Source: Alistipes finegoldii
GTDB lineage: Bacteria; Bacillota; Clostridia; Christensenellales; UBA1242
Length of the DNA: 64,000 nucleotides
Direction of reading: 5' to 3'
Assembly: GCA_963614045.1 (NCBI GenBank)
Contig: CAVEBU010000003.1
Span: forward strand, 986 to 64,985
Numbering within the stretch: the stretch's first letter is position 1; each line of letters begins with the position of its first letter. Below the pieces are notes generated by a model that did not search any database, was not told the DNA's origin, and worked only from the letters and a program-made list of their open reading frames with translations. Shown here piece after piece: positions 13,761 through 61,563 of this stretch. The translations under genes were made by a program, and so were the position numbers.

Positions 13761-14897
13761 TTAGATTTGCTCAATTTCTTCAAAAAGGTCCTCATCTAGA
13801 TTTTGGTCAATATTTGTATTAACCTGCTCTAGCTCCTTGTCCTTCTCGTCTTGTTTGGACTGGCTCTCGCTTATAACATCGATCTTCCACCCTGTAAGCT
13901 TTGCGGCAAGACGGACATTACTACCTTCTCTACCAATAGCCAAACTCAACTTGTTGTCTGGAACGATAACTTTACTTGATTTAGCTTCTTGATTAATCTC
14001 CACACTAATAACATCAGCGGGGCTAAGGGCATTTGCAATAAGTTCAAAAATATCGTCGCTAAATGGTATAACGTCGATTCGTTCCCCATGCAATTCCTCA
14101 ATAACCGCATTAATTCTTGCGCCACGATTCCCCACGCAAGCACCTACAGCATCAACATTAGGGTCGTTTGAAATTACTGCAAGTTTAGTTTTAACACCAG
14201 CCTCACGAGTCATCGCTTTAATTGAAATTGTGCCGTTCGCCAACTCAGGAACTTCCAACTCGAATAACTTCTGCACAAAATTTGGCAAAGTTCTACTAAC
14301 TTGCACCAACGACCTTCCGTCACGCTCATAAGCACGTTTAACGATTACTTTAACACGGTCACCTATTGCGATATTCTCTTTTGGAATTACATCCTTAGCA
14401 CTCAAAAGCCCCAAATGGTCAAAACCGCTCAACTCCAAAATAAAGTCGTCGCCGTCCTTACTGCGTACAATACCTGTAGTCAAGGTATCCGCCTTGCTAT
14501 TAAGGTCATCAGCGAATTGTTGCCTCTCCGCCTCACGCAATTTCTGCATAACAACCTGTCTAGCAGTCTGCGCAGCAATTCTTCCGAAATTCTTGGGTGT
14601 AACTTCCTCCATGACTTGATCGCCAACGTTGTAAGACGACTTAATCGCTTTCGCATCGCTAAGACTAATTTGCTTATCAAAATCTTCTACTTCGTCAACA
14701 ACAGTCTTGTACGCATACACCTTAATAGTCCCTTTCTCAGGGTTTAGCTTAACACTAGCACTTCTGGCTTCGCCAAAATTCTTTTTGTATGCGCTAGTCA
14801 AAGCACTCTCTAATGCAGAAATAAAATAATTTCTGTCAATTTTTCTCTCTGTCTCCAATTGGCTCAGTGCCAAAAAGAAATCTTTATTACTAATCAT
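13761..14897 (-). CDS. nusA: Transcription termination/antitermination factor NusA
   Basis: N-terminal domain, S1 and two KH regions are recognisable. Start moved to ATG 14897 (MISNKDFFLAL) behind AAGGAG. Confidence 0.95.
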   Translation of the reverse strand: MISNKDFFLALSQLETERKIDRNYFISALESALTSAYKKNFGEARSASVKLNPEKGTIKVYAYKTVVDEVEDFDKQISLSDAKAIKSSYNVGDQVMEEVTPKNFGRIAAQTARQVVMQKLREAERQQFADDLNSKADTLTTGIVRSKDGDDFILELSGFDHLGLLSAKDVIPKENIAIGDRVKVIVKRAYERDGRSLVQVSRTLPNFVQKLFELEVPELANGTISIKAMTREAGVKTKLAVISNDPNVDAVGACVGNRGARINAVIEELHGERIDVIPFSDDIFELIANALSPADVISVEINQEAKSSKVIVPDNKLSLAIGREGSNVRLAAKLTGWKIDVISESQSKQDEKDKELEQVNTNIDQNLDEDLFEEIEQI

Positions 14898-14935
14898 TTT
14901 ATAGCAACTCCTTGGTAAACACATTATTAAAAGTT

Positions 14936-14960
14936 ATGAGTGGGCTGAAGCCCCACTCAT
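14936..14960 (-). promoter_or_regulatory. Leader hairpin between the nusA promoter and the nusA RBS (candidate attenuator)
   Basis: Minus strand ATGAGTGGGGC-TTCA-GCCCACTCAT (about 10 bp plus 1 bulge), followed by a weak U tract AACUUUUAAU. Confidence 0.4.
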
Positions 14961-14971
14961 AGTTCGTTAGT

Positions 14972-15000
14972 ATTATAACATATATTTTTCAAAATATCAA
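14972..15000 (-). promoter_or_regulatory. Near-consensus sigma-A promoter TTGATA-17-TATAAT (TGT extended -10) for nusA
   Basis: -35 at 15000-14995 and -10 at 14977-14972 on the minus strand, with an exact 17-nt spacer. Confidence 0.55.
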
Positions 15001-15028
15001 TACATTTATAGCATTTTTTTGACTTTTT

Positions 15029-16591
15029 TTAAATAAGTTTGACAAAAACCTTTGCAGTTGCATATGCATCAGCCAAAGCTCTATGGGCATTATTGAGTGT
15101 GATATTAAGCGCCTTAACAACTGTACCCAACTTATAGTTGCTTAGACTTGGCACTTTATCACGCACAAGCCTCAGCGTATCAATCTGTTCGTTGTCAAAT
15201 TTTAGACGCAAATTTTCTCCATTAAAGCTCAAGAAACTATAGTCAAAATCAATATTATAAGCACTCAACACACACCCAGACACGAATTTAAAAAAGTCTG
15301 GTAGTGCTTGTTCAATCGATGGCGCATTTTCCACCATACTATTATCAATATGCGTAAGTTCGGTGATTTCTGCAGGAATTTGCAGTCCTGGATTTATGAG
15401 AGTTTGAAAAGTCTCGATTATTGACCCTTTAGTAATTTTTACCGCACCGATTTCGATTATTTTACAACTTCTTGAATCAAATCCCGTCGTTTCCAAATCA
15501 AAAACCACTACGCTATCGTGCGTATCCCAATAATCCGTCTTTTTGCCACCGAGAGAAAACAACTCCATTTGTTGCGACTCAAAGACGGGTTGAGGTTTAA
15601 CAAAATAATAGTCGTCGTTTACTTTACGATAAACTCGCTTCATCTCTTTTGTGAAAATTTCGCATTTAGAAATGCTATTGACACGCAAATTTTTATTGCC
15701 GTTAAATTCGTGAATAACTCCGCCGACAGTAACCGTCATCCCGTCCTCCATAAGTTCAAGTGACTTGAGAGCTTTTTCTTGCGGAAATACGACAACATTT
15801 ACAAACCCGCTCGGGTCTGTGAGTGTAAAAGATAATTTTTTACGCTCCAAAGGTTCGCCATCAAGCTTGACTTTCGAAGTAAAACTCGTAAGCGCCAAAT
15901 TGGTTACGACACCTGCTATCATAATTTCGGCACCACTGTCAGCACTCATATTTGCGATAAAATCAACTCTATTAGGCATATATTTACCATAAAAGCACTC
16001 ACCTAATTCAATTTCCATATGATTTAATTGCTTTTCTTTTGTTAAAGCATCACTTAGCCCTGTATCAATTTTGGGCATATCGTTTAATAATTCTTGAAAA
16101 TTCGTCGATTCCTTGTCCACTCGCAAGGTCACTACAAAATCAAAAAAGAATTTATGCAGTAAGAAATTTCTTAAGTCAACATCAAATTTTTTATTTATGA
16201 AAACTTGCTTTCGCAATTCGTCGCAAGAAATAATTATTTCTGCCCCGTCGCCGTCTTTTAACCGCTCAATAGTGACATCTTCACGATTGAATTCATTTTT
16301 AAGAGCCTTGTAGTGTTTATCAATGTATTCTTCAATGCGTTCATAAATAACTTCTTTATCAAAACAACTCTTGTTCGCCTTGACAACAACCTTACAACTT
16401 TCACCAAAGCATTCGTTTACAATACTTACAATTTGGTTTTTCTCGTCCGATGTAATCGGTTTATTTTCAGGGTACATAAAATTTATAGTCAATTCGTCTT
16501 TTTTGTTATTAAAAACTGCTTCATCTAGTTTAATTCTGCTTTCATCAAAGCCCGCTTCTTTAATCTTTTGTAAAACGTTCACGCCTCTCAC
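15029..16591 (-). CDS. PolC-like N-terminal/OB-fold region fused to a DEDDh 3'-5' exonuclease. No PHP or polymerase domains.
   Basis: OB-like block IMIAGVVTNL...LSFTLTDPSGFVNVVVFPQEK...MTVTVGGVIHEF. Exo I VVVFDLETTG, Exo II LSAYNIDFDYSFL, Exo III HRALADAYATAKVF. The GTG start overlaps the rseP stop. Confidence 0.65.
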   Translation of the reverse strand: MRGVNVLQKIKEAGFDESRIKLDEAVFNNKKDELTINFMYPENKPITSDEKNQIVSIVNECFGESCKVVVKANKSCFDKEVIYERIEEYIDKHYKALKNEFNREDVTIERLKDGDGAEIIISCDELRKQVFINKKFDVDLRNFLLHKFFFDFVVTLRVDKESTNFQELLNDMPKIDTGLSDALTKEKQLNHMEIELGECFYGKYMPNRVDFIANMSADSGAEIMIAGVVTNLALTSFTSKVKLDGEPLERKKLSFTLTDPSGFVNVVVFPQEKALKSLELMEDGMTVTVGGVIHEFNGNKNLRVNSISKCEIFTKEMKRVYRKVNDDYYFVKPQPVFESQQMELFSLGGKKTDYWDTHDSVVVFDLETTGFDSRSCKIIEIGAVKITKGSIIETFQTLINPGLQIPAEITELTHIDNSMVENAPSIEQALPDFFKFVSGCVLSAYNIDFDYSFLSFNGENLRLKFDNEQIDTLRLVRDKVPSLSNYKLGTVVKALNITLNNAHRALADAYATAKVFVKLI

Positions 16592-17730
16592 CCCTGTATT
16601 ATTAAATGATAAATATCGACGAAAATAACTAGCGCAAATAGTACCACCATCCCGCCGAAATGAATATACCCCTCTATTTTTCTGTTAATCGGTTTGCCAC
16701 GTATCCACTCTATCGACGTAAACACCATTCGGGCGCCGTCAAGCGCAGGAATTGGAAGCAAGTTAAACACAGCAAGGTTTGCGGCAATAAACGGCAAGAA
16801 CACGAAAAGATTTGCAATATTCAGTTGCGAATACTCGGCTATTGTAGAAATTGTGGTTAGTGGTCCGCCGATATCGGACAAACCGATTCCGCCCGTTAGC
16901 AACATCCACAAGAACACGAGTACTTGCCACGCAAAACCTGCCGCTACTGGCACCGACCTAACAAGCGCTTCGCCGAAACTATGCTTATAAGGTACTGTAC
17001 TAAAACCAACTGCAATCGATTCAGTAGTCTTGCCACTATCGTCCGTTGTCGTTGTGACATAAAAATTGACCGTAATATTTACATTTTTGCCGTCACGCTC
17101 AACAGTCAACGGTAAAGTGCTATATTTCGTGTATTCTTTGTCCTTGATTGTAACTTTTTCGCCCGAAGCTTTTTCCTCGTCTGTCATACCCTCATAATAG
17201 CGATTTAGAATATTGTTAGCAGTGTTACCCGTCACAAAATCAATTTTGATGCCGTTCATTTCTCGAATAATATCGTTTTGTTGCAAAACTGAAGTATCTT
17301 GATAATCAGGATTGACAGTACTAACTCTAGGAACATCGTACCCGAAAGCTAGTAGCAAAATAAAGGCAAAAATTATTGCTGAAATGAAGTTAAAGAAAAC
17401 ACCACCGAACTGAACAATCAGCCGTTTCCAAGGCGCTTTATTATTAAACGCATTGGGGTCAGTATCATCTTCATCTTCGCCCGCAAAAGCGCAGTATCCA
17501 CCCAAAGGCACGAGTCTTATGCTAAATTCTTCACCAGAGCGGAGTTTCTTCTTGAAAAGAGCCTTACCAAAACCGATTGAAAACTCGTTGATTTTAAACT
17601 TAAATATCTTACCAAATGTGTAATGTCCCGCCTCGTGAATAGTTATCATAACAAGCAAAACCACGATCGCCAAAGCGATGTATCCCACTGTTGTCATCAC
17701 ACTAGCAAAAGAACCCAAACAGCAAATCAC
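16588..17730 (-). CDS. rseP: RIP metalloprotease RseP (M50 site-2 protease)
   Basis: HEAGHY zinc motif in TM1, a PDZ-like middle and polytopic topology. GTG start behind GGAGG. Confidence 0.85.
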   Translation of the reverse strand: MICCLGSFASVMTTVGYIALAIVVLLVMITIHEAGHYTFGKIFKFKINEFSIGFGKALFKKKLRSGEEFSIRLVPLGGYCAFAGEDEDDTDPNAFNNKAPWKRLIVQFGGVFFNFISAIIFAFILLLAFGYDVPRVSTVNPDYQDTSVLQQNDIIREMNGIKIDFVTGNTANNILNRYYEGMTDEEKASGEKVTIKDKEYTKYSTLPLTVERDGKNVNITVNFYVTTTTDDSGKTTESIAVGFSTVPYKHSFGEALVRSVPVAAGFAWQVLVFLWMLLTGGIGLSDIGGPLTTISTIAEYSQLNIANLFVFLPFIAANLAVFNLLPIPALDGARMVFTSIEWIRGKPINRKIEGYIHFGGMVVLFALVIFVDIYHLIIQG

Positions 17731-37070: not shown

Positions 37071-38630
37071 TTATATTGACAATAATTTTATTAAACTTTC
37101 TTTGTCGATTGCGGTTAGGAATAAGTATAATCTAGGACCTTTGCTTTTGCCTAATAACAAGTTATAAACAATTTCAAAGAAACGCCTTTGTCTAGTTTTA
37201 TCTGGTTCGCCGTTGATTTTTGGAATATCGTATAGAAGTGTCTGCATTTCTTCTTGCGTTAAGTCCTTTGACTTGATTTCGGCAACTAATTTCTTAACCC
37301 AACCACGCTCTTCATCGTTTAGCGAATTAGCAAATTCAGTGTTTACTTCGTCCAGTAACTTGCTAATTGACTCAGGGCAATAATTTTGTAGCCAGAAACT
37401 TATACGATTAAATCTGTCTTCAATTTGCTCACGTGTGCAAGTGTCACCCATTTTGTTGAGCAATTCCACTAGCATATCGAGGTCAAAATTGACAATTGGT
37501 GCAAATGCAGAGATATTTTGTGCGCTAACAGGACAGTTTTCATAGTCTTCACCACGACAAGATAGCGCCATCTCCATAATGCGCTTAACCACCTCATCAG
37601 CCTCGCCCGACTTATACTGAGCATACATCCTGTCAAACTCGTGATAAGTACGCAAGACATCTTCATCTAGCGAAATGTCAAAGCATTTTTCGGGCAAGAA
37701 TCTAGTGTATAACCACAAAATAATTTCTGGAGGAAACACCTTGAGCATTTTTGCGGGAGTCATAACATTACCCTTACTACTACTCATTTTGCCATTTGTT
37801 CCCTTAATACCTACAAACTCGTAACCACGATAAAGGGGCGGTTTCCCGTTAAAAATTGGCCCAACGACCGCACTTGCAACTTGGAAACTTCCACCCTCAG
37901 TGCTGTGGTCTTTGCCACCAGGTTCAAAGTCAAAATGCTCTTTTGCCCAACGCATAGGCCAGTCCACTTTCCACACAAGTTTAGCATTATGCTGAGTACG
38001 TAAGTCAATCGCACCCTTGTAACCACATTTACACTCAAAATCTAGCACAGCGCCATTTTCCCTATCGCCCAAAACAGTAGTTGTGTGCTTATGACACTCT
38101 GGACAATAGATTTGCACAGGATAATAATGCTCCCTATCGTCTAAATTCTCATCTTGAGTTTTAAAACTCATAATAATGTCATAAATTTGCTTGCGCTTCT
38201 GCACTGCAGTAATCATACTATCACTATAGTACCCACTCAAATAGCGCTCTGTTTGGTCAATATGCTCTACCTTCACTCCCAACTCTTTTAGCGAATCAAC
38301 AAAGGGTTGCTCGAAATGTTCTGCCCAACTTTTATGACAACCATGTGGGTCAGGAATTTGTGTAAGGGCGCATTTGACATACTTAACATACTCCTGGTCT
38401 TGATCTAATGGAACTTTGCGCAAGCCGTCGTAATTGTCCCACACAAATACGAAACGAGTCTTTTTGCCTTTATCTTGCAAAGCTTTCACCACAAACCAAC
38501 TCGTAATAACCTCTCGCAAGTTGCCCATATGAACCTCGCCACTAGGACTAATTCCACTAGCGCAGGTGTAAACCTCGGCATCAGGATTTTGTGCTATGAC
38601 TTGCTCAGCAATTTCATCTGCCCAATACAT
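37071..38630 (-). CDS. lysK: Lysine--tRNA ligase, class I type
   Basis: Rossmann class I motifs: SPSGEVHMGNLREV (HIGH-like) and KMSSSKG (KMSKS). WKVDWPMRW and FEPGGKDH blocks as in archaeal/spirochaetal LysK. Confidence 0.85.
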   Translation of the reverse strand: MYWADEIAEQVIAQNPDAEVYTCASGISPSGEVHMGNLREVITSWFVVKALQDKGKKTRFVFVWDNYDGLRKVPLDQDQEYVKYVKCALTQIPDPHGCHKSWAEHFEQPFVDSLKELGVKVEHIDQTERYLSGYYSDSMITAVQKRKQIYDIIMSFKTQDENLDDREHYYPVQIYCPECHKHTTTVLGDRENGAVLDFECKCGYKGAIDLRTQHNAKLVWKVDWPMRWAKEHFDFEPGGKDHSTEGGSFQVASAVVGPIFNGKPPLYRGYEFVGIKGTNGKMSSSKGNVMTPAKMLKVFPPEIILWLYTRFLPEKCFDISLDEDVLRTYHEFDRMYAQYKSGEADEVVKRIMEMALSCRGEDYENCPVSAQNISAFAPIVNFDLDMLVELLNKMGDTCTREQIEDRFNRISFWLQNYCPESISKLLDEVNTEFANSLNDEERGWVKKLVAEIKSKDLTQEEMQTLLYDIPKINGEPDKTRQRRFFEIVYNLLLGKSKGPRLYLFLTAIDKESLIKLLSI

Positions 38631-38792: not shown

Positions 38793-39053
38793 ATGACCAG
38801 AAACGATTTAATCAAAGTTATGAAAACTATGATACTTTCAATGGCTTGCGCACTACCAATCGTGCTAGTTATCAGCCTTTTGTTAGCGAATAAATTGTCT
38901 AGCGTGGCAATTGTATTTTTGGATTCCGCTTTGCTTATTTCTGCAGGCGTTTTGGGTTACTTCATAAAAAATGCAAATGAACAGCGTATCAAGAGGAAGC
39001 GTGCAGAATTCTTGAAAAATCAGAAATCACAACAAAAAGAAGGTGAGAAATAA
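38793..39053 (+). CDS. Small two-TM membrane protein, translationally coupled to dnaB
   Basis: 86 aa with two hydrophobic helices and a K/R/Q-rich tail. AAGGAG RBS. The stop overlaps the dnaB start (TAATG). Confidence 0.5.
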   Translation: MTRNDLIKVMKTMILSMACALPIVLVISLLLANKLSSVAIVFLDSALLISAGVLGYFIKNANEQRIKRKRAEFLKNQKSQQKEGEK

Positions 39054-40738
39054 TGGCTGAGAATAAAAAAGGAACGGTCGCATCTAATATTGTGGGTAGA
39101 AAGTTGCCTTACAATTTTGAAGCAGAACAAGCAGTTTTGGGTGCAGTATTAATCAGTCAAGAGGCGCCTAGCATAATTTTGAGCGAACTAAAAGAAGACG
39201 ATTTTTTGTCTAAAGAGCATCAAATAATTTTCGGCACAATGCAGACATTATTTATCAAGAAAAATCACACCTATTTTGACCACATAATTCTAACGAGTGA
39301 ATTAGAGAGCAAAGGACTACTTGATGCAGTTGGTGGAATTTCATACCTACTCACTCTGACGGACAAACTGCCCAGCTCGACTAACTTCCAATACTATGTT
39401 GATATTGTTAAACGTGATTCCATTCTCCGCAAACTAATTCAAGCGGGTGGCGAAATTATTGAGGACGCCTACACAAGTGATGATATGGTAAAATCGCTTC
39501 AATCGGCGGAAAATTCAATATACAAAATCAGTCAAGTTAGCGAACATTCGTCATTAGAGCATATTCGTAGCAGTCTTGAAAAAGTTATTGCTGATTTTGA
39601 GTTATGCTTCCAAAACCCTAATGCCAAACGTGGACTTGAAACGGGGCTTGTTGGACTTGACCACTACACAAACGGCTTCCAAAAAGGCGACTTAATTATC
39701 CTTGCTGCCCGTCCATCCTTTGGTAAATCTGCGTTAGCTCTAAATATGGTGCAACATATGGCAGTGAAATGCAAGAAATCTTGTGCTGTATTCTCGTTGG
39801 AAATGCCAAAAGAACAGCTGAGTAGACGTATGGCGTGTAGTATTTCGGGCGTTGATATGGCAAAAGTCTTACGAGGCGACCTCGAGGACGAACAAGAGCA
39901 ACGTAGGTTTAGGCAAGCTATTTCCGTACTTGCTGATGCGCCGATTTTTATAGACGATAGCAGTATGAATACCCCTGCAGAAATTTTGTCAAAATGCCGT
40001 AGACTCAAAAATGACCCAGCTTATGGGCTAGACTTTGTGATGATCGACTACTTGCAATTAATGAACGTCGGACCTCGTTCAAAAGCGGACAGCCGTCAAC
40101 AAGAGGTTTCTGAAATCAGCCGTAGTTTAAAAGTTATTGCAAAGGAATTAAACGTGCCTGTTCTCGCCCTATCGCAGTTATCACGTGCCGTAGAATCTCG
40201 TACTGGCGACCACAAGCCACAGTTGAGTGACTTGCGTGAAACTGGTAGTATTGAGCAAGATGCCGATATTGTAATGTTTATTCACCGCCCTAGTAGATAC
40301 CAAGATACCAATAAAAATCAAGATATGGATCAAAGTCAAGCATTTCTTGTTCTTGCTAAACATCGTAACGGTGCTTTGGGCGACATTCCTATGCATTGGG
40401 ACGGCGGAACAACTACCTTTACTAGCACCGCTCGTGACCTTGAAACCGCAAGTTTGGAAAGCACCGCCCCACCGCCAATTAGCGAGAAAAGTAAACGTGC
40501 TTTTGAGAAAATCGCACGAGAATTGCAAGGCAATTCAGCCGAAATTGACGATATTTTTGATAGCACACCACCGCCAATACCACCAGCACCGACTCAAGAC
40601 GATATGCCTTACGATGTGCCAAATATAGAACCCGCACCCGAACCACCTTTTGATGATGAAATTATATCAGCGGTTACTCCAGAAAATTCTCAGAATAATA
40701 ACCCAAACACAGATGATGACCCGCTTTTTGACGAATAA
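39053..40738 (+). CDS. dnaB: Replicative DNA helicase DnaB with a ~110-aa Pro/acidic C-terminal extension
   Basis: LPYNFEAEQAVLGAVL N-domain and Walker A ARPSFGKSALALN. RecA-like core up to ...HWDGGTTTFTS. The tail ends ...NTDDDPLFDE. Confidence 0.9.
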   Translation: MAENKKGTVASNIVGRKLPYNFEAEQAVLGAVLISQEAPSIILSELKEDDFLSKEHQIIFGTMQTLFIKKNHTYFDHIILTSELESKGLLDAVGGISYLLTLTDKLPSSTNFQYYVDIVKRDSILRKLIQAGGEIIEDAYTSDDMVKSLQSAENSIYKISQVSEHSSLEHIRSSLEKVIADFELCFQNPNAKRGLETGLVGLDHYTNGFQKGDLIILAARPSFGKSALALNMVQHMAVKCKKSCAVFSLEMPKEQLSRRMACSISGVDMAKVLRGDLEDEQEQRRFRQAISVLADAPIFIDDSSMNTPAEILSKCRRLKNDPAYGLDFVMIDYLQLMNVGPRSKADSRQQEVSEISRSLKVIAKELNVPVLALSQLSRAVESRTGDHKPQLSDLRETGSIEQDADIVMFIHRPSRYQDTNKNQDMDQSQAFLVLAKHRNGALGDIPMHWDGGTTTFTSTARDLETASLESTAPPPISEKSKRAFEKIARELQGNSAEIDDIFDSTPPPIPPAPTQDDMPYDVPNIEPAPEPPFDDEIISAVTPENSQNNNPNTDDDPLFDE

Positions 40739-43788: not shown

Positions 43789-46700
43789 ATGACTAAACAT
43801 TCAATCTCAATTAAAACTTTACTACTTACAGTTGTTGTAACAATCAGCTTGTTAGTTGGTGGTAACATTTGGGCTTTCGCTGGAATGCAACACGTTTCGG
43901 CATCAGCAGATACTTCTGCCACTTATTCAGCCACATCAACAGCAAACGTTGTAACTTACGATTTCGAGTCGGATAGTGGTACTTATCCTATTAGCCCATC
44001 GAAGTTTTCCAAAATTACCGACGAGAGCAGTACTGCAACTCCAGAAGCGTCAGGTGTAATTAACCTCACTCCTGATGTCTATAATACTTATAGCAAAGAT
44101 AATTATAAGTTGGACGGGTATGATAAGCCTGCCCAGAATCTAGACAGCAAGCAGGTTTTGATGATCAACGCACGTAAAAAAAGTATTTACTATGGTTATG
44201 AGACTAGCAGTGCAACCACGCTAGAAGCAAATAGTTTTTACGAAATCAGTGTGTCATTATATACCCACGCAAGCGCTAATGCTAGTGTTTATATTGACGG
44301 AACAGACTTTGACGACTTAGAGAATAGTCAAATTGCTCGTATCAACACTATGAACACTTGGAAAACAGTGACGTTCTATATCGCAACAAGCAAGACCAGT
44401 TCAAGTTCGGCAACTGTTCAACTATATCTGGGTGCAAAATCTCATGCGGGCAGTTCTAGTCACACTGAATCAACCGACTATGCACTATTTGATAATATAA
44501 TAATCAACCGCCTTTCTGGTGAAAATTATCAAAAGAAGTCCCAAGACGCTAAGAATTCTGACTACGCAGGAGTTATTGACCTTGATAAATCTACCCTAAT
44601 TACTTCTGGACAAGCGGGTTTTGTAAAAAACGGCGACTTTGCTAGCGGTTCATCTAACTGGACAAACGACGAGAGTAATACCGGCGGTAATGTTCTATAT
44701 GTTAAGAATATGAACCAAGCAATCACTATCAATTCTGAATCAGTGATTTTGGGTACGCATTTCCCTCAAGAAACGTTGACTAGCGGTGTAGTGATTTCTG
44801 CTCAAGGTAGTACAGTCGCAATCAACTCAGACGACATTACAATCAAGCAACACCACATTTATCGCATTGCTTTTTGGGCAAAAGGTGAACTTAACAGTAG
44901 CACTCTTAACTTAAAAGTTAGCGGAAAGATTCCTAACGGCTCTGAGGAGAAGACTTGCTCCGCTCAATACACAAGTTTTGTGACAAGCGAAGAGATTAAC
45001 GGCGGTTGGGGTTTATATGAATTTTACATTGTAGGAAACCCTCTTGCCGACACTACTGTTAAGCTTACTTTAGGAATTACTTCAGCAAACTCTACCGATT
45101 CGGGATATGTAGCGGTTTCCGACATTAAATCTTACCTTGTTTCGACGCAACAAATGACCGATGGTACCAGCAACAACTCAAACGCAAAAACTGTCAAAAT
45201 GTACTCAACAGACAACACGTTGTCTTTCGATAACTATTCATTTAACTTAGTTTCGATTTCAGAAACTGACGCAACAAAGACGATCTACCCACTTACGCCG
45301 ACGAGCTGGACAGCTGGCGAAACTAACAAATCAAGTGGTGTGGTAAACATTAGCGAAAGTGAATGGGCAAACGTTCCTTTTACAAGCACTCGCCCATCGA
45401 AATCTGACCTTCCAGGCTATTCTGACAACGACAACGTGCTTATGCTAAACGCATTCACGAGTGGTAAAGTTCAATCGTTTACCAGTGCTACACAGACTTT
45501 TGACAAAGACGGTTATGCAAAAATCACTTTCCAAGCATACATCAATAGTAATTCAACTGCATACGTAACCATTAAAAACAGCGATGGCACTGTTATTGCT
45601 GAAATACCTATTACCAAACAAAACAGTGGTGCGAAATGGAGAGAATACGCCATTTACCTACACAACTATATTAATTCTCAAACGATAAGCGCTACCCTGT
45701 CTTTAGGTAGTCAAAACGACGCCAAAGTTGATGGCTTTGCATATTTTGACAATGTAAAATTTGACAGCAGTTTAACAGAAGAACAGTTTAATCAAGTTAC
45801 TGAAGATAGCCAAAATGCAAAATTCGATTTAACAACAAACGCACTTAGCGCTACCACAAGCAAGGATAGTATTACCCCTCTTATGTGGAATTTAAATGTT
45901 AGCGAAAATGCCGAAAAAACAACCGTAAACAGTGGAATTATAGATTACCGAAACGCAGGTTCTTATGCTTTCATTAGTGGTTTCCCACAAAATCCTGAAG
46001 GCAACGATTCAAATATGATTATGGTTATTCAGGCAGGCACACCTGTTTACGCAACATATGAGAGTAAGCTTACTTATTCACTTGACGCTAGTTCGTACTA
46101 CAAACTGACTGTTTGGGTAAAGACAACGGGTTTAACTGCCGACACGCAGACAGACGAGGACATCACTGATGACGGCGAGTTGATTAAGCATGGCGCAAGC
46201 ATTATGATGTCTAATGTAAGCTCGAGTTTCACAAAGATCAAGACTCAAAGTATTAAAAATGTTGATGAATGGAAGTTGTACACAATGTACATTTACACGA
46301 CCGATTCAATAACAAGTAACATAAAACTCGGATTGGGCTGTACAAATATGCCTACAGCGGGTGCTGTTTACTTCGCAAATCTTAACTTCACTTCCCTAAC
46401 CGAAGATGAATACAAGAACGAAATTTTAGCATACGACACCAATAATTTGCCTAGCAATGTTTTGCTTGCAACGAACGTTCCTGAGGATGAAGAAGACAAT
46501 CCAAGCCAAGCAGGTAAATTTGACCCGTTTGCCTTCTCTACAATCGTTATTGCTATTGCTGTAATCTTTGCTGTTATTGGCTTAACAATCAAGAAAGTTA
46601 AACAAAACGCACCAAAGAGAACAACGAAAGTTTCAAACAACTACGACAGATTGCAAACATTAATGAAAGACGTTGACCGTCGTGAGCGCAAGACTGCTAT

Positions 46701-47013
46701 CAACCACAAGTTGAAATTGTTGAAAGAAGAGCTTGAGCAATCGCAAACCTTCTTGGCGCAAGAAATTAACGATTTAAGGAAACAAACTGAGTCGTACAAC
46801 ACAGCAAAAGAAATTGCACAAGAAAACCCTGCAATTGAACTTGACGAGCCTGATGTAAAACAAATTCAAAAGGAAATCCAAGTTCAAACTGCTAAGATTA
46901 AGCAGATTGAGGAAGATATAGAAATCCTTGAAGAAGAAAAACAGCGCATTGAAGCGCAAAACAAGAAATCAATCGACAAACGTAATGTTGCTAAAAACAA
47001 CAAATCTAAATAA
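43789..47013 (+). CDS. Large type-I membrane-anchored surface protein: signal peptide, four CBM4/9-like jelly-roll modules, a C-terminal TM helix and a ~140-aa cytoplasmic coiled coil
   Basis: Signal peptide LLLTVVVTISLLVGGNIWAFA. Module hallmarks include GFVKNGDFASGSSNWTN and four Y-x-I/L-x-F/V-W-A/V-K type strands (FYEISVSLYT, IYRIAFWAKG, YAKITFQAYI, YYKLTVWVKT). TM helix FAFSTIVIAIAVIFAVIGLTI. K/E/Q heptad-like tail. Confidence 0.6.
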   Translation: MTKHSISIKTLLLTVVVTISLLVGGNIWAFAGMQHVSASADTSATYSATSTANVVTYDFESDSGTYPISPSKFSKITDESSTATPEASGVINLTPDVYNTYSKDNYKLDGYDKPAQNLDSKQVLMINARKKSIYYGYETSSATTLEANSFYEISVSLYTHASANASVYIDGTDFDDLENSQIARINTMNTWKTVTFYIATSKTSSSSATVQLYLGAKSHAGSSSHTESTDYALFDNIIINRLSGENYQKKSQDAKNSDYAGVIDLDKSTLITSGQAGFVKNGDFASGSSNWTNDESNTGGNVLYVKNMNQAITINSESVILGTHFPQETLTSGVVISAQGSTVAINSDDITIKQHHIYRIAFWAKGELNSSTLNLKVSGKIPNGSEEKTCSAQYTSFVTSEEINGGWGLYEFYIVGNPLADTTVKLTLGITSANSTDSGYVAVSDIKSYLVSTQQMTDGTSNNSNAKTVKMYSTDNTLSFDNYSFNLVSISETDATKTIYPLTPTSWTAGETNKSSGVVNISESEWANVPFTSTRPSKSDLPGYSDNDNVLMLNAFTSGKVQSFTSATQTFDKDGYAKITFQAYINSNSTAYVTIKNSDGTVIAEIPITKQNSGAKWREYAIYLHNYINSQTISATLSLGSQNDAKVDGFAYFDNVKFDSSLTEEQFNQVTEDSQNAKFDLTTNALSATTSKDSITPLMWNLNVSENAEKTTVNSGIIDYRNAGSYAFISGFPQNPEGNDSNMIMVIQAGTPVYATYESKLTYSLDASSYYKLTVWVKTTGLTADTQTDEDITDDGELIKHGASIMMSNVSSSFTKIKTQSIKNVDEWKLYTMYIYTTDSITSNIKLGLGCTNMPTAGAVYFANLNFTSLTEDEYKNEILAYDTNNLPSNVLLATNVPEDEEDNPSQAGKFDPFAFSTIVIAIAVIFAVIGLTIKKVKQNAPKRTTKVSNNYDRLQTLMKDVDRRERKTAINHKLKLLKEELEQSQTFLAQEINDLRKQTESYNTAKEIAQENPAIELDEPDVKQIQKEIQVQTAKIKQIEEDIEILEEEKQRIEAQNKKSIDKRNVAKNNKSK

Positions 47014-52007: not shown

Positions 52008-55000
52008 TTATTTAGTCTTCTTGGTGTTTGTGTTTGCTTTTGTTTTTGCTCTGTTTGGTTTAACGAAGAAGTAAATTACAACTCCAACTACAATCAACGA
52101 AACAATAATCATAATTGTTCCCCAAACAGTAGAACTACTTGCTCTATTTACACTGTCAGATTTTACAGTAATGTTCTTTGTTACAGTTGTAGCCTCATTT
52201 CCAGCTTTGTCAGTAACATCGAAAGTGATTACATATGTGCCAGCCTCACTAGCGGTGAACACAATGCTCTTCTTCTTGTCAGGGTCGTTATAATTCCAGT
52301 CGATCTCGGTACCGTTCAATTTAACAACTACTTTCAGGTCTTCAGTTTTGCTCAAGCCTTCGTCGTTCTTAAAGCTAATACCATCCAAACTAATTATACA
52401 CTCACCGCCAACTTTTGTAGGTGCTGTAATTGCATCATTTGCAACCACAATCTCTGGAGCAAGCACGTCACCAATATAGATGTAGAAATCACGTGTTGTC
52501 GTGTTGCCAGCTTTGTCGGAAGCGGTATATGAAACCTTAATCTTACCTTGCTGTGTTGCAATAAATGTCAATTCAGCAGCCTCATCAAAATCAGCCAAAG
52601 TAAATGTCTTAAATACAGTACTGCTACCAGTATAAGTCAACTCAACCTTAAGTGAATCATAATCTACACCCTTACCAGCTTCGCTGATCTCATAGAACCA
52701 AGGCACGCTGTGTGTGTTTTCCTCATCAGAATCGCCCCACTTATAACTAGCAATTAAGTTAGAACCATCACTCTCGCCCACGATTGTAAATTCAGGTGCT
52801 GTGGTGTCAGTAGATGTAAAGCTTACAAGAGATGAACAGTTGTTGTCAAAGTCACAAATTCCAGCTTCCCCTGCGTTATCCTTAGCCCAAGCCTTAACAG
52901 AAATATCACCATCCAAGCACTTAATTACACCGTTAGGTCCAGTTTGGACAATTTCATATTCACCTGTTACTTGGATTAACATCGAGTTTGAATACATGTC
53001 TTTTACCATTTCTTTGGTAACTTCTCCATTAACAATTGAAATGTTACCGTTGTCAATGTCAACAGTCTCACCATTTTTTGTAACAGAAATCATACTAGGC
53101 AAATCAAGTATATTGCCGTACTCTTGAGTGCTAATTGGGTTAATCGATACTGAGTAGCCCAAGTAGAAGTTTACCTCACAACTCGTTGAGAATGTAGTCG
53201 TGTTTAAGTTTTGGTCAGTTGCAACATATACAAATGTGTACGTGCCTTCTTGTGTTGGCTCGTATTCAAACTGCTCCATTACAGCTTCTTTGCTAGCTGA
53301 ATAAGAGCTACCGCTCTTCGTGTCAACGACTCTACCCTTTTCGTTTAATACATACAAAACCAAAGATACGTTTGTCGCATTCTCAGATTGATCTTGTACG
53401 GTAACTTTAGGCAAATTAACTTTTCTGGTTGTTGGATCATAATCAGCCTCACCTGCCTCTTGTATAACTGGTGCTAATTTATCCTTAGAGAAGTCTAGCA
53501 ACTGAATCGTCTTTGTTACTGTTTCACTTGCACCTAAATCATTAGTTACCTTAAAAGTAATCGTCATAGATGTAGCATTATTCCACTTCGTCTCATCAAT
53601 GCTACCCTGCGCAACCTTAATTGAGTAAGTACCATCGCTATTCTTTGTTATTGTGATAGGCTCATCACTTTCTTCAAAGGTGTTAAGCGTGTAGGTTACA
53701 TCAACTTTCAATCTTTTATCCTCGTCGTCGCTAACACTTGGAGCATTAAAAGTAACTGTCTTGTCAGCGTTCTTCAATACAGCTGAAGTAGGTATGCTTG
53801 GCGCAGTGATTTTCAAATTGGTTGTTGATGGCTCTGCATCTTTCTTAATCTCAAAACTATAACTGCCCAAATATTTTGTAGTATTCGCAATTTCATTACC
53901 ATCATTATCTACATAGCAAGCTGTATAACGAATTTCATAAGTGCCTACATCGTTAGCGTCAAAGTAGTAACTACCAGTCTTATATGCGTCACACTTATCA
54001 GTCGTTGCGGAATCAATCTTGTGCGATTCCTCTAGCGCTCCAATTCTAGTACTGCTACCTTTGTAAATAACACGAGTAAGCTTGAGGTTCTTGTACTCAC
54101 CCCAGCCACCCTTAGCAATAATTGCAGGGAAAGTAGCCTTCACACCTTCGCCGTCAGTAATGTAGTAAACACTCTTAACATCGTAGTCGTGAGACACCCA
54201 TTCGCCATCACTCAAATCAAGTTTAGAGTAGTCAAAACTCTCATCTTCAGGGTTATAATCTTGAACTGCTTTAACTTCCAAAGAGTTGGCAGACAATTTT
54301 ATGTCCGAACGCTCTGTACTTGCCTTGTCATAAGTATTACCGAAAAAGTCCTTTGTTACATAACTAATACGATAATTACCTACAGCCCATGGAGTAAACT
54401 TGTAATCGGTAACATCTATAGTCTTATCATCAGGTCCCTTAATAGTAATAACGGTGTAAGTCTTGCTAGAAACATCAACATTGTTAGCTTTAGTATTTAC
54501 AACAACAGGAGTAGGCAAGGTTGCCTCAACACCAACTTCCAAACTCAAGTTGTTCAAAAGACTGGTGACATTATTAGAATATCCCAATTCAACATCCTGC
54601 TTTTCTTCAAGCACTCTAAAGGTCTCTGCTACAGAAACATTTTTACCACCAGCAGAATATGTGTAAGTAACCTTAAAGTCACCGGCATCACCGTCTGCTA
54701 TAGTGTATTCCATATACTTTGTAAGGTCGGTTTGAGTAAATGATTCCTTAACAGTGCCATCAGAATCAGTCAACTTAACAGTAACTAACTTTGTAGCCTC
54801 TTCATTTACTTCGCCGTCAATCTTAACATTTGCGTGAGGGAACACGATTTTGTTACCCACATAAGCAATAGTCGGAATAATCTGAGCGACATTTGACTCC
54901 AATTCCAAAGTAGCGCCGTTTGAAACAATCTCAACCACGATATTCCTTGTAGAAGTCGTGTAGTTACCGTTCTTCGCTGTATAAGTAATGTTATACTTAC

Positions 55001-55343
55001 CTGCATTATCTGTAACTAAGTAATAGTAAGTGCCGTCAGTCTCAACTGTCGCTTTTCTACCAGCAGAGGTCGTAGCAGTAGGCGCAACGGTTTCACTACT
55101 ATCCGTAACAGCCTTAGGCAATTTATAACCGTATGTTTTGTTCTTACCTGTTGGAGTAAACTCGGTCTTATCCCCTAGGTTGTAAGTTGGTGTATATTCT
55201 GTCAACGTAATCACAGGTGCATTAAGTGAAAAGCCCTCCGCACCAAGTGCTGTCCCACCCACCATCATGGGACTTAAGAACCCCAATGAGCCGATCAACA
55301 TAATTGCCAAACTCATAAAGGTTAATCTACCAAATAATTTCAT
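52008..55343 (-). CDS. Large type-I membrane-anchored surface protein with multiple Ig/HYR-like beta-sandwich repeats (adhesin-like)
   Basis: Signal peptide, then about 1000 aa of T/V/Y/D-rich beta-strand repeats with recurring ...YTA.DKAGN...T... motifs (SDKAGNTTTRDFYIYIGD, TDKAGNEATTVTKNITV). C-terminal TM helix WGTIMIIVSLIVVGVVIYFFV and a Lys-rich tail. Confidence 0.6.
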   Translation of the reverse strand: MKLFGRLTFMSLAIMLIGSLGFLSPMMVGGTALGAEGFSLNAPVITLTEYTPTYNLGDKTEFTPTGKNKTYGYKLPKAVTDSSETVAPTATTSAGRKATVETDGTYYYLVTDNAGKYNITYTAKNGNYTTSTRNIVVEIVSNGATLELESNVAQIIPTIAYVGNKIVFPHANVKIDGEVNEEATKLVTVKLTDSDGTVKESFTQTDLTKYMEYTIADGDAGDFKVTYTYSAGGKNVSVAETFRVLEEKQDVELGYSNNVTSLLNNLSLEVGVEATLPTPVVVNTKANNVDVSSKTYTVITIKGPDDKTIDVTDYKFTPWAVGNYRISYVTKDFFGNTYDKASTERSDIKLSANSLEVKAVQDYNPEDESFDYSKLDLSDGEWVSHDYDVKSVYYITDGEGVKATFPAIIAKGGWGEYKNLKLTRVIYKGSSTRIGALEESHKIDSATTDKCDAYKTGSYYFDANDVGTYEIRYTACYVDNDGNEIANTTKYLGSYSFEIKKDAEPSTTNLKITAPSIPTSAVLKNADKTVTFNAPSVSDDEDKRLKVDVTYTLNTFEESDEPITITKNSDGTYSIKVAQGSIDETKWNNATSMTITFKVTNDLGASETVTKTIQLLDFSKDKLAPVIQEAGEADYDPTTRKVNLPKVTVQDQSENATNVSLVLYVLNEKGRVVDTKSGSSYSASKEAVMEQFEYEPTQEGTYTFVYVATDQNLNTTTFSTSCEVNFYLGYSVSINPISTQEYGNILDLPSMISVTKNGETVDIDNGNISIVNGEVTKEMVKDMYSNSMLIQVTGEYEIVQTGPNGVIKCLDGDISVKAWAKDNAGEAGICDFDNNCSSLVSFTSTDTTAPEFTIVGESDGSNLIASYKWGDSDEENTHSVPWFYEISEAGKGVDYDSLKVELTYTGSSTVFKTFTLADFDEAAELTFIATQQGKIKVSYTASDKAGNTTTRDFYIYIGDVLAPEIVVANDAITAPTKVGGECIISLDGISFKNDEGLSKTEDLKVVVKLNGTEIDWNYNDPDKKKSIVFTASEAGTYVITFDVTDKAGNEATTVTKNITVKSDSVNRASSSTVWGTIMIIVSLIVVGVVIYFFVKPNRAKTKANTNTKKTK

Positions 55344-60591: not shown

Positions 60592-61563
60592 TTACAGCGT
60601 TACCACGCTCGTAATAAAGAAATACAGCGCATTTTTATCACTCATTTCGCCTGCTTTAATCTTGTAATCAAGACTCGCACCCAAATCAAGCGCTTTTTTT
60701 AGTTTCGGCAAACTAAATCTCGCCCCCGTTTCTCTAGCAATCTTAACCGCATATTCTTTTATGCCTAATTTGGTCGCAACTACCGCATTACTGTCTTTGC
60801 TTGATAATGCAAAAAACATCCTACGGAAATTGCCCACAATAAGCATAATCAACATTTGAGGTGATTCTTTTCGCAAAAGCAGTTGCTCCACAATTTGCAT
60901 CGCCTTTTTGCCGTTTTTATTTACAACGGCGTTACTTAATTCAAAAACATCGTATTCAATTTCACGATGAACATTCTGCTCCACGATTTCTAAAGCCACA
61001 AGCCCGCCCGAGCCAAGCATATTGCCTAACTTTATTACTTCGTTGTTGATTCGTGTGTAATCATTATTGCAATAATTGATAAGCCTTTCTAGTGCGTCGC
61101 TGTTGATTTTTACTCCAAAAGTATTGAGTTGCGTGACTACAAGTTTAGCAAGCATTGTCGAGTCCATCGGCGAACAGTCGACAATTTCGCAAAGCGGTTC
61201 AAGTTTCTTTAACGCCGAATTCCCCACCGAATCCACGATTATTAAAACGGTAGAAAGTAGCGGTTTTTGTAAATATTTGATTAGCGGTGCAACTTCGTCA
61301 GCTTTTTTGACAGCGATATCTTTTAGCACCACGACCCTGTGTTCGTCCATCATAGGAATCGACAGACAAGCAGAGATTATCGCCGACATATCGGTGTTTT
61401 CATCGGTAAAATACGCCAAATTAAGATCCTTAATCTTTAACGAAAAGTTAACAATCATTTCGACTGATTTTTGCCGTAAAAACGCATCGCTACCCTTGAT
61501 AAAATATGCTTGCTTAATGTTCGATAGAGATTTTTTTAATTCTTGAAACTTCATAATTTGCAC
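60592..61563 (-). CDS. holA: DNA polymerase III delta subunit
   Basis: 323 aa with delta N-terminal-like start (...LKKSLSNIKQAYFIKGSDAFL...); conserved position after comEC. Confidence 0.8.
   Translation of the reverse strand: MQIMKFQELKKSLSNIKQAYFIKGSDAFLRQKSVEMIVNFSLKIKDLNLAYFTDENTDMSAIISACLSIPMMDEHRVVVLKDIAVKKADEVAPLIKYLQKPLLSTVLIIVDSVGNSALKKLEPLCEIVDCSPMDSTMLAKLVVTQLNTFGVKINSDALERLINYCNNDYTRINNEVIKLGNMLGSGGLVALEIVEQNVHREIEYDVFELSNAVVNKNGKKAMQIVEQLLLRKESPQMLIMLIVGNFRRMFFALSSKDSNAVVATKLGIKEYAVKIARETGARFSLPKLKKALDLGASLDYKIKAGEMSDKNALYFFITSVVTL

Follow-up and report, generated by a model that had tools for sequence, protein, structure and literature searches.

A PolC-like OB and exonuclease module without a polymerase occupies the polC position in a clade of gut Clostridia

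What is the gene of 520 codons that stands at the polC position in a 64,000-nucleotide stretch of clostridial DNA (contig CAVEBU010000003.1 of assembly GCA_963614045.1, order Christensenellales; hereafter the window), and what is left of PolC in its product? PolC is the hallmark replicase of Bacillota and the target of antibiotics of the ibezapolstat class. The gene in the window (15029..16591) encodes an exonuclease and no polymerase. We propose, with a probability of roughly 0.55, that it descends from polC by position in a clade of gut Clostridia which are uncultured, form spores, and resemble Christensenellales, and that its product is a clamp-tethered 3'-5' exonuclease acting in trans.

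Pfam and an AlphaFold2 (AF2) model with a mean predicted local distance difference test (pLDDT) score of 88 delimit four parts of the protein: an N-terminal domain (NTD), an OB fold, a linker of 45 residues, and a DEDDh exonuclease domain (Exo), which is complete. Pfam detected neither a PHP nor a DNA_pol3_alpha domain in the protein. An earlier description made from the letters and open reading frames (ORFs) of the window, here called the sequence-only reading, stated that the protein ends exactly with the exonuclease and that no remnants of PHP, palm, or fingers lie beside its gene. Both statements hold. In the Pfam match and the AF2 model, the exonuclease fold runs, with its last helix, to the very end of the protein, and the gene is separated from nusA only by a promoter-like site and a hairpin. 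No ORF of at least 80 amino acids in the window matches the PolC PHP-N or polymerase-core profiles.

The Exo aligns with RNase_T (PF00929) at residues 362–516 and covers the whole model (E 5e-36, 125 bits versus a cut-off of 24, Pfam). The catalytic residues are D365, E367, D450, H503, and D508, which together with the RNase_T match substantiate the three DEDDh motifs noticed earlier. The pentad is intact in all 231 full-length cluster representatives of the family (anchored count). The Exo is also the best-conserved part of the protein, with a mean identity of 64% within the family, versus a mean column identity of 41% for the N-region. Purifying selection on the exonuclease is strong, and the protein is very likely catalytically active.

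The best NCBIfam match of the protein is the PolC model NF001688, aligned at model positions 421–584, which are the Exo insertion (174.6 bits versus a cut-off of 873). The score against the PolC model TIGR01405 was 150.4 versus a cut-off of 1043, short of whole-protein PolC membership. The DnaQ superfamily model TIGR00573 scored above its cut-off (104.8 versus 71.5), and the protein belongs, by its sequence, to the DnaQ/DEDDh superfamily. Within that superfamily it does not qualify as an epsilon equivalog, as its scores fall below the cut-offs (72.5 versus 222.7 for TIGR01406) and no residues extend past the Exo fold to form a C-terminal alpha-binding tail. The best PDB sequence match of the Exo is that of T. 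maritima PolC (2p1j, E 3e-30). The Exo domains of the family have a mean identity of 45.8% to those of clostridial PolCs, which at least matches the identity of PolC Exo domains between phyla (42.5% for clostridial versus Enterococcus, 43.3% for clostridial versus Thermotoga) and exceeds the 33% identity to the Exo of DinG. In a neighbour-joining tree of Exo domains, calculated without support values, the family forms a single clade, with the sampled PolCs as its sister group.

The OB fold was recognized by Pfam as tRNA_anti-codon (PF01336, residues 250–308, E 1e-7, above the gathering score). Residues 195–320 of the family match the OB fold of PolC with 95% probability (HHalign, E 3e-8, profile of 12 clostridial PolC N-regions). 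The entire N-region is collinear with PolC in the global mode of HHalign (96.6% probability, E 6e-10), whereas the reversed control gave no match. The top PDB match of the AF2 model in Foldseek is the full-length PolC of E. faecium (9qpc, E 1e-18). The alignment spans 381 columns and comprises OB and Exo in the PolC order, versus about 164 columns in Exo-only matches. An N-terminal profile of the family (residues 1–345, exonuclease excluded) matched only the OB fold of YhaM among PDB sequences (E 7e-4), and not PolC. The same profile found none of 38 PolC ORFs at E ≤ 1e-5 in a plain hidden Markov model (HMM) search; profile–profile comparison was required.

In the AF2 model, the NTD consists of a tandem pair of alpha/beta subdomains, one a-b-b-a-b and the other a-b-b-a-a-b, with a type II KH-like topology. 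The NTD of PolC was predicted to form two KH-like subdomains of this topology, NI and NII (Timinskas and Venclovas), for which kinship with domain V of tau has been reported (PMC3919608; PMC12926913). The HHalign match between the NTD and the NTDs of PolCs is weak, with E values of 0.013–0.019 versus 0.11–0.39 for reversed controls, and a deeper NTD profile (55 family versus 38 PolC sequences) did not improve the significance. Pfam did not match the NI or NII domains in the protein. A Foldseek search with the NTD-only model gave no significant match, the hits being generic alpha/beta repeat domains and a weak match to the KH domain of NusA. No PDB entry resolves the NTD of PolC, so there is no solved structure of it to serve as a reference. 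Homology of the NTD to that of PolC is probable but unproven, and is argued from the modelled topology, collinearity, and locus.

The sequence-only reading of a PolC N-terminal and OB region joined to a proofreading exonuclease thus stands for the OB fold and the Exo, by profile and by fold, and is suggestive (E about 0.01–0.02) for the NTD, the first 160 residues. It had been set beforehand that residues 1–340 should resemble PolC if the reading were right; the resemblance is present in the HHalign matches of the OB fold and N-region and in the Foldseek match to 9qpc. The protein is very probably derived from PolC. A generic OB-DnaQ fusion unrelated to PolC and present at this locus by chance, or an assembly or pseudogene artefact, would agree with the weak similarity of the NTD and with the canonical PolCs missed by the N-terminal profile in the plain HMM search. 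We regard this as highly improbable in view of the NTD-OB-Exo order collinear with PolC, the HHalign and Foldseek links, the exact positional replacement of polC, and the hundreds of intact, divergent family members under purifying selection.

The positional evidence comes from 88 fetched loci, which were annotated with profiles built from the neighbour genes of the window. The gene order is frr-uppS-cdsA-rseP-FAM-(rimP)-nusA-ylxR-infB in 36 loci carrying the family gene (FAM), and frr-uppS-cdsA-rseP-POLC-rimP-nusA-ylxR-infB in PolC-bearing Clostridia, including Geosporobacter (L060), Petroclostridium (L075), and many Lachnospiraceae. The syntenic polC position between rseP and rimP-nusA, which the sequence-only reading had given for Bacillota, is seen directly in the fetched PolC loci of other Clostridia. 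The polC genes in this slot encode proteins of 1,420–1,640 amino acids. A PolC locus is recognized by the arrangement rseP-(ispG/proS)-polC-rimP-nusA, and comparison with the PolC loci showed that the 36 family loci correspond to it in position. The 36 loci were assembled independently and carry family ORFs of 505–546 amino acids, two of them within longer stop-to-stop frames. These two frames (L013 8966-10903 and L046 6723-8642) have about 640–646 residues, and the family match begins at residue ~146–188, after either a possible N-terminal extension or just a long upstream frame.

The exonuclease could alternatively be a partial polC duplicate that works beside a normal PolC, outside the replicase, as an accessory repair or end-processing nuclease. 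It would excise DNA in mismatch repair, trim Okazaki fragments or 3' flaps, or process stalled forks at clamp-marked sites. Several DnaQ-like exonucleases, standing alone or fused to other domains, are found in Firmicutes; in NCBIfam, the matches of the protein to DinG-Exo, PRK06807, and PRK07883 nearly equal its PolC match, and QxxLF clamp motifs are common in repair proteins. The strong strand bias and GC skew of the window, as in PolC-type Firmicutes, are a weak argument for the same interpretation. However, the family gene is located exactly at the polC position in every locus, and reduction of polC where it stood is a more parsimonious history than its displacement from the ancestral locus by a partial duplicate. 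No family-bearing metagenome-assembled genome (MAG) in the list of the 80 best genome matches also gave a PolC Exo match, which is a weak point against a coexisting PolC. We consider an accessory nuclease of this kind improbable.

The family is large. A homology search with the protein gave 1,076 matches. Apart from a few shorter fragments, the 120 best have lengths of 481–530 amino acids; they are 33–99% identical to the query and mostly cover more than 90% of it. The N-terminal profile, searched against 1.84 billion cluster representatives, matched 703 clusters (50% identity) at E ≤ 1e-3. The best 150 of these all have the NTD-OB-Exo architecture or are fragments, and none is PolC-sized. When GTDB species were scanned with one genome each, the full-length members among the best 80 loci occurred solely in MAGs, labelled as Clostridia bacterium, Christensenella sp., Christensenellaceae, Candidatus Scatosoma, and a few probably mislabelled bins. 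The scan matches to residues ~359–520 alone (47–52% identity) were all Exo domains of PolCs of 1,422–1,642 amino acids. Family members are publicly named '3'-5' exonuclease', '3'-5' exoribonuclease', or 'hypothetical protein'. The recurrence of the NTD-OB-Exo architecture is far beyond chance and is not an artefact. Its presence in hundreds of divergent clusters and 36 independently assembled loci rules out the collapsed or frameshifted polC that had been named as a possible refutation, and the 36 loci show the like architecture and synteny in related genomes.

A further possibility is a split replicase, in which an Exo-less PolC (NTD-OB-PHP-Pol3-HhH) is encoded at another locus and the family supplies a DnaQ-type Exo in trans after duplication and complementary loss. 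The strict conservation of the family Exo agrees with such a division. The Exo insertion is lacking in 6% of PolCs (16% of those in PolC+DnaE1 systems), almost only in Clostridia and Negativicutes (PMC3919608), and the Exo-less PolCs of Acidaminococcus have about 1,200 amino acids. However, no polymerase core was found in the window or within ±10 kb of any of the 36 family loci, and none of the best 150 of the 703 N-terminal profile matches has the size of a polymerase. The known Exo-less PolCs retain an intact PHP proofreading site. The best 80 genome-scan loci include no Negativicutes and thus give no hint that the lineages known for Exo-less PolCs require such a partner. Moreover, under this reading it is the intact copy, and not the remnant, that would have left the ancestral locus. 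We consider a split replicase unlikely.

The linker, of about 45 residues (about 40 in another count), takes the place of some 100 PHP-N residues in PolC. A local HHalign comparison of residues 320–345 with the PolC N-region gave no match, and thus no vestige of PHP-N was detected in the linker. The global alignment placed QQMELF of the linker opposite the HTxMS strand of PolC. We rejected this segment as a PHP-N remnant, since the alignment was forced and the local test of the same residues was empty.

The pentapeptide QMELF of the linker is a candidate beta-sliding-clamp-binding motif. It fits the Qxx[L/M/I/F][F/L] pattern of beta-clamp-binding proteins and is a conserved element in a flexible segment. 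The family consensus Q-x-[D/N/S]-L-F is present in all 55 aligned members, and the surrounding linker segment is variable. The glutamine of the motif is retained in 228 of the 231 cluster representatives. Of 100 representatives, 92 have the motif at a distance of 18–28 residues upstream of Exo motif I, versus 6% in shuffled linkers. In the clamp-binding consensus QL[S/D]LF, positions 1, 4, and 5 are the most important (PMC3919608). PolC's own clamp motif is at the extreme C-terminus; therefore, the linker motif of the family would be a new acquisition and not a leftover. On balance, we favour the interpretation that the motif binds the clamp.

The polC slot also harbours a shorter variant of the family. 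Complete genes that encode NTD+OB proteins of 293–334 amino acids and have their own stop codon are located directly downstream of rseP. The proteins (P0178, P0186, P0193, P0196-P0198, P0227, P0242, and P0251) have neither the linker motif nor the exonuclease. In locus L084, the NTD+OB-only gene is followed by a convergent sigma-70 factor gene, with no Exo or rimP-nusA. The variant suggests a reduction series from PolC to NTD-OB-Exo to NTD-OB. It also raises the possibility that the selected function is that of the NTD-OB module, such as binding of single-stranded DNA, DnaE, or tau, and that the protein is a non-catalytic replisome or DNA-binding scaffold that carries the Exo as an optional passenger. 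The NTD+OB-only genes that are not followed by an Exo gene fit a scaffold, as does the relatedness to domain V of tau that has been reported for the PolC subdomains NI and NII (PMC12926913). However, an intact pentad in every full-length representative is unexpected for a passenger over such divergence, and the Exo is better conserved than the N-region. We consider a primarily scaffolding role quite improbable.

We therefore return to the clamp-tethered descendant of polC as the preferred explanation. We hypothesize that polC lost the regions encoding PHP, palm-thumb-fingers, and HhH, and retained the NTD, the OB fold, a short disordered linker, and the DEDDh Exo as a free-standing protein of 517–520 amino acids. 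The protein would be an active 3'-5' exonuclease and would be brought to primer termini by its linker motif, through the beta sliding clamp. Single-stranded DNA or a replisome partner would be held by the OB fold, and possibly by the NTD. Editing or trimming of 3' ends would take place in trans for the remaining C-family polymerase of the cell, most likely DnaE1. In effect, the protein would be an epsilon-like proofreading factor that arose from a polymerase.

Published data make loss of the PolC polymerase plausible: some Clostridia possess DnaE1 only, PolCs without Exo exist, and the DnaE1 of Clostridia combines a typical clamp motif with an intact PHP site and with a conserved patch that putatively binds epsilon (PMC3919608). 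Polymerase-less fragments were left out of that survey. We give slightly less than even odds to the protein working with DnaE1 in a genome without any PolC polymerase. More tentatively, the family may define an order-level clade of gut Clostridia that has no PolC polymerase and replicates with DnaE1 alone. In such a clade, NTD-OB-Exo would serve as a clamp-tethered proofreader and/or replisome adaptor, and NTD-OB would be its further reduced form.

Several observations weigh against this explanation. The DNA read comprises the 64-kb window and ±10 kb around the relatives, and the polymerase complement of the host lies outside it. The need for an additional proofreader is not obvious, given that the DnaE1 of Clostridia normally proofreads with an active PHP domain (PMC12926913). 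The Exo of the family is not nested among the clostridial PolCs in the neighbour-joining tree, which carries no support values. The kinship of the NTD to PolC is statistically unestablished at E values of 0.013–0.019, and its model has no fold match in the PDB. The OB profile of the family missed E. faecium PolC in the PDB and found the OB fold of YhaM as its best sequence match. At the sequence level, the OB fold is generic, and its link to PolC comes from the clostridial PolC profile, collinearity, and position. The putative clamp motif is a five-residue pattern. Finally, with an NTD+OB-only subfamily in the same slot, the conserved core function may not be that of an exonuclease.

The positions of the domains and of neighbouring features are listed in Table 1. 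The sequence-only reading had placed a 520-residue ORF in the polC slot, with a GTG start that overlaps the TGA stop codon of the upstream M50 protease gene rseP. The ORF is present as described, but its start is probably the second GTG, at 16582. The GTGA overlap is unlikely to be the start because the close homologues have 517 amino acids and are called from the second GTG; the homologue in L082 is called 6 nucleotides past the rseP stop codon. An AGGGG sequence is located about 9 nucleotides upstream of the GTG at 16582 (segment 16580-16591).

Table 1 Features of the polC-slot gene, its surroundings in the window, and the shorter genes in related loci
Feature	Position	Strand	Details
Whole ORF	15029..16591	(-)	520 amino acids from GTG; stop codon 15029-15031
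Probable true coding sequence	15029-16582	(-)	517 amino acids from second GTG; based on 517-residue homologues and L082 gene call
N-terminal domain, probable counterpart of PolC NI/NII	16112..16579	(-)	residues ~5-160; AF2 pLDDT >90
OB fold, PolC/tRNA_anti-codon type	15656..16012	(-)	residues ~194-312; Pfam, HHalign, Foldseek
Linker	15521..15655	(-)	residues 313-357; pLDDT <50 at residues 341-344; invariant Y328 and P333
QMELF, candidate beta-sliding-clamp-binding motif	15557..15571	(-)	residues 341-345; family consensus Q-x-[D/N/S]-L-F
DEDDh 3'-5' exonuclease, PolC type	15032..15520	(-)	residues 358-520; Pfam, NCBIfam, PDB sequence match
rseP-like M50 protease gene, conserved upstream neighbour	16588..17730	(-)	defines polC slot with nusA
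nusA, conserved downstream neighbour	13761..14897	(-)	rimP absent between gene and nusA
Promoter-like site TTGATA-17-TATAAT, extended -10 (TG)	14972..15000	(-)	11/12 matches
GC-rich 10-bp hairpin followed by ACTTTT	14935..14961	(-)	between promoter-like site and nusA start
NTD+OB-only genes	L083 1262-2239; L085 1452-2387; L086 5267-6235; L084 434-1369		directly 3' of rseP

The rimP gene, present in most family and PolC loci, is missing from the window at 14898-15028, where a spacer of about 131 bp remains. It is likewise missing in a 67%-identical relative, GCA_949300525.1 (L087 11555-11685; L088 3338-3468). The gap of 104 bp previously given for this interval is correct to the upstream ATG chosen by the ORF finder, but the distance is 131 bp to the likely ATG of nusA at 14897. 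The promoter proposed for nusA corresponds to the near-consensus site in the spacer, which is followed by the hairpin. The hairpin could be a nusA leader, an attenuator, or a terminator of the upstream gene, and no Rfam family matched it above noise.

The window as a whole is a chromosome segment of a spore-former and contains spoIIIAA-AG and sigK together with xseA, topA, dprA, dnaB, holA, and uvrAB. The GC skew of the plus strand is -0.13 to -0.26, uniform over 1-64000, the AT skew is approximately 0, and the minus strand carries almost every gene. We discarded skew as a signature of PolC, as an AT skew of approximately 0 is uninformative in an almost one-strand window. The holA gene for the delta subunit of DNA polymerase III (60592-61563, minus strand) adjoins comEC; the window thus has a clamp-loader gene and no alpha subunit. 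DnaB helicase (39053-40738, plus strand) is encoded by one of the two large plus-strand genes. It has 561 amino acids, of which DnaB models cover ~19–465, leaving a C-terminal extension of about 100 residues. The lysyl-tRNA synthetase (37071-38630, minus strand) is of the class I archaeal type (TIGR00467, E 2e-127) and not the usual bacterial class II LysRS. Two ORFs that flank uvrA-uvrB, of 1,111 amino acids (52008-55343, minus strand) and 1,074 amino acids (43789-47013, plus strand), have no NCBIfam match. The former has Pfam matches to bacterial Ig-like domains, with PF16403 alone above the cut-off, and the latter one sub-threshold match to an FlgD Ig-like domain. Both are probably Ig-like surface proteins.

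The family shares with PolC (NF001688/TIGR01405; structures 3F2B and 9QPC) the order of a probable NTD counterpart, OB, and Exo, about 46% Exo identity, the profile and fold of the OB, and the rseP/rimP-nusA position. It differs from PolC in the absence of PHP on both sides of the Exo, and of palm, thumb, fingers, HhH, and the C-terminal QLSLF, and its clamp-like motif separates OB from Exo, whereas that of PolC is C-terminal. By analogy, the closest functional resemblance appears to be to E. coli epsilon (DnaQ), which is also a free-standing DEDDh exonuclease with a clamp-type motif in a flexible segment beside the catalytic domain; the proposed role, proofreading in trans for a DnaE-type polymerase, would be the same. 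The origin and domain make-up differ: the family appears to stem from PolC, scores below the cut-offs of dnaQ_proteo and other epsilon models, lacks the C-terminal alpha-binding tail, has an additional NTD and OB fold, and carries its motif upstream of the Exo.

Loss of Exo or of the whole PolC is documented in Exo-less PolCs and in DnaE1-only Clostridia (Timinskas et al. 2014, PMC3919608), to which the family looks complementary, as it retains the part missing there; those proteins are polymerases, however, whereas the family protein has no polymerase. The DnaE1 of Bacteroidetes with an N-terminally fused DnaQ is another natural exonuclease–polymerase rearrangement among C-family replicases, with the exonuclease fused to the polymerase there and separated here. 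YhaM/Cbf1, a 3'-5' exonuclease composed of OB and HD domains, similarly combines OB and nuclease, and its OB fold was the best PDB sequence match (E 7e-4); the family has no HD domain by Pfam, and the OB fold alone aligns. The DinG-Exo fusions of Firmicutes also join a DnaQ-type domain to a partner, and the Exo of DinG is the second-best structural match of the family Exo. The family has no helicase domain, and its Exo is about 33% identical to that of DinG versus about 46% to that of PolC.

Within the literature searched, no paper describes a PolC that is truncated, split, a remnant, or a pseudogene, and nothing relevant was found on PolC in Christensenellales. New here are the conservation of the catalytic pentad, the near-invariant QxxLF motif of the linker, and the NTD+OB-only variant in the polC slot. 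The family was missed by surveys that drop polymerase-less fragments and by pipelines that name the gene '3'-5' exonuclease' or 'hypothetical protein'.

The division of labour in the clostridial PolC+DnaE1 system was raised explicitly as a question in PMC3919608. The family marks a clade whose replisome must have another organization. Inhibitors of the PolC polymerase may be intrinsically ineffective against this clade. It would be a natural separation-of-function allele for the unexplained NTD and OB of PolC, a candidate non-canonical proofreader for DnaE1, and a record of a step between two-polymerase and one-polymerase systems. If a clade with DnaE1 alone does exist, it would provide natural intermediates from PolC+DnaE1, through DnaE1 with a PolC remnant, to DnaE1. 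It would show that a trans-acting, epsilon-like subunit can arise through reduction of a polymerase, and would point to a polymerization-independent function of the enigmatic NTD-OB module of PolC.

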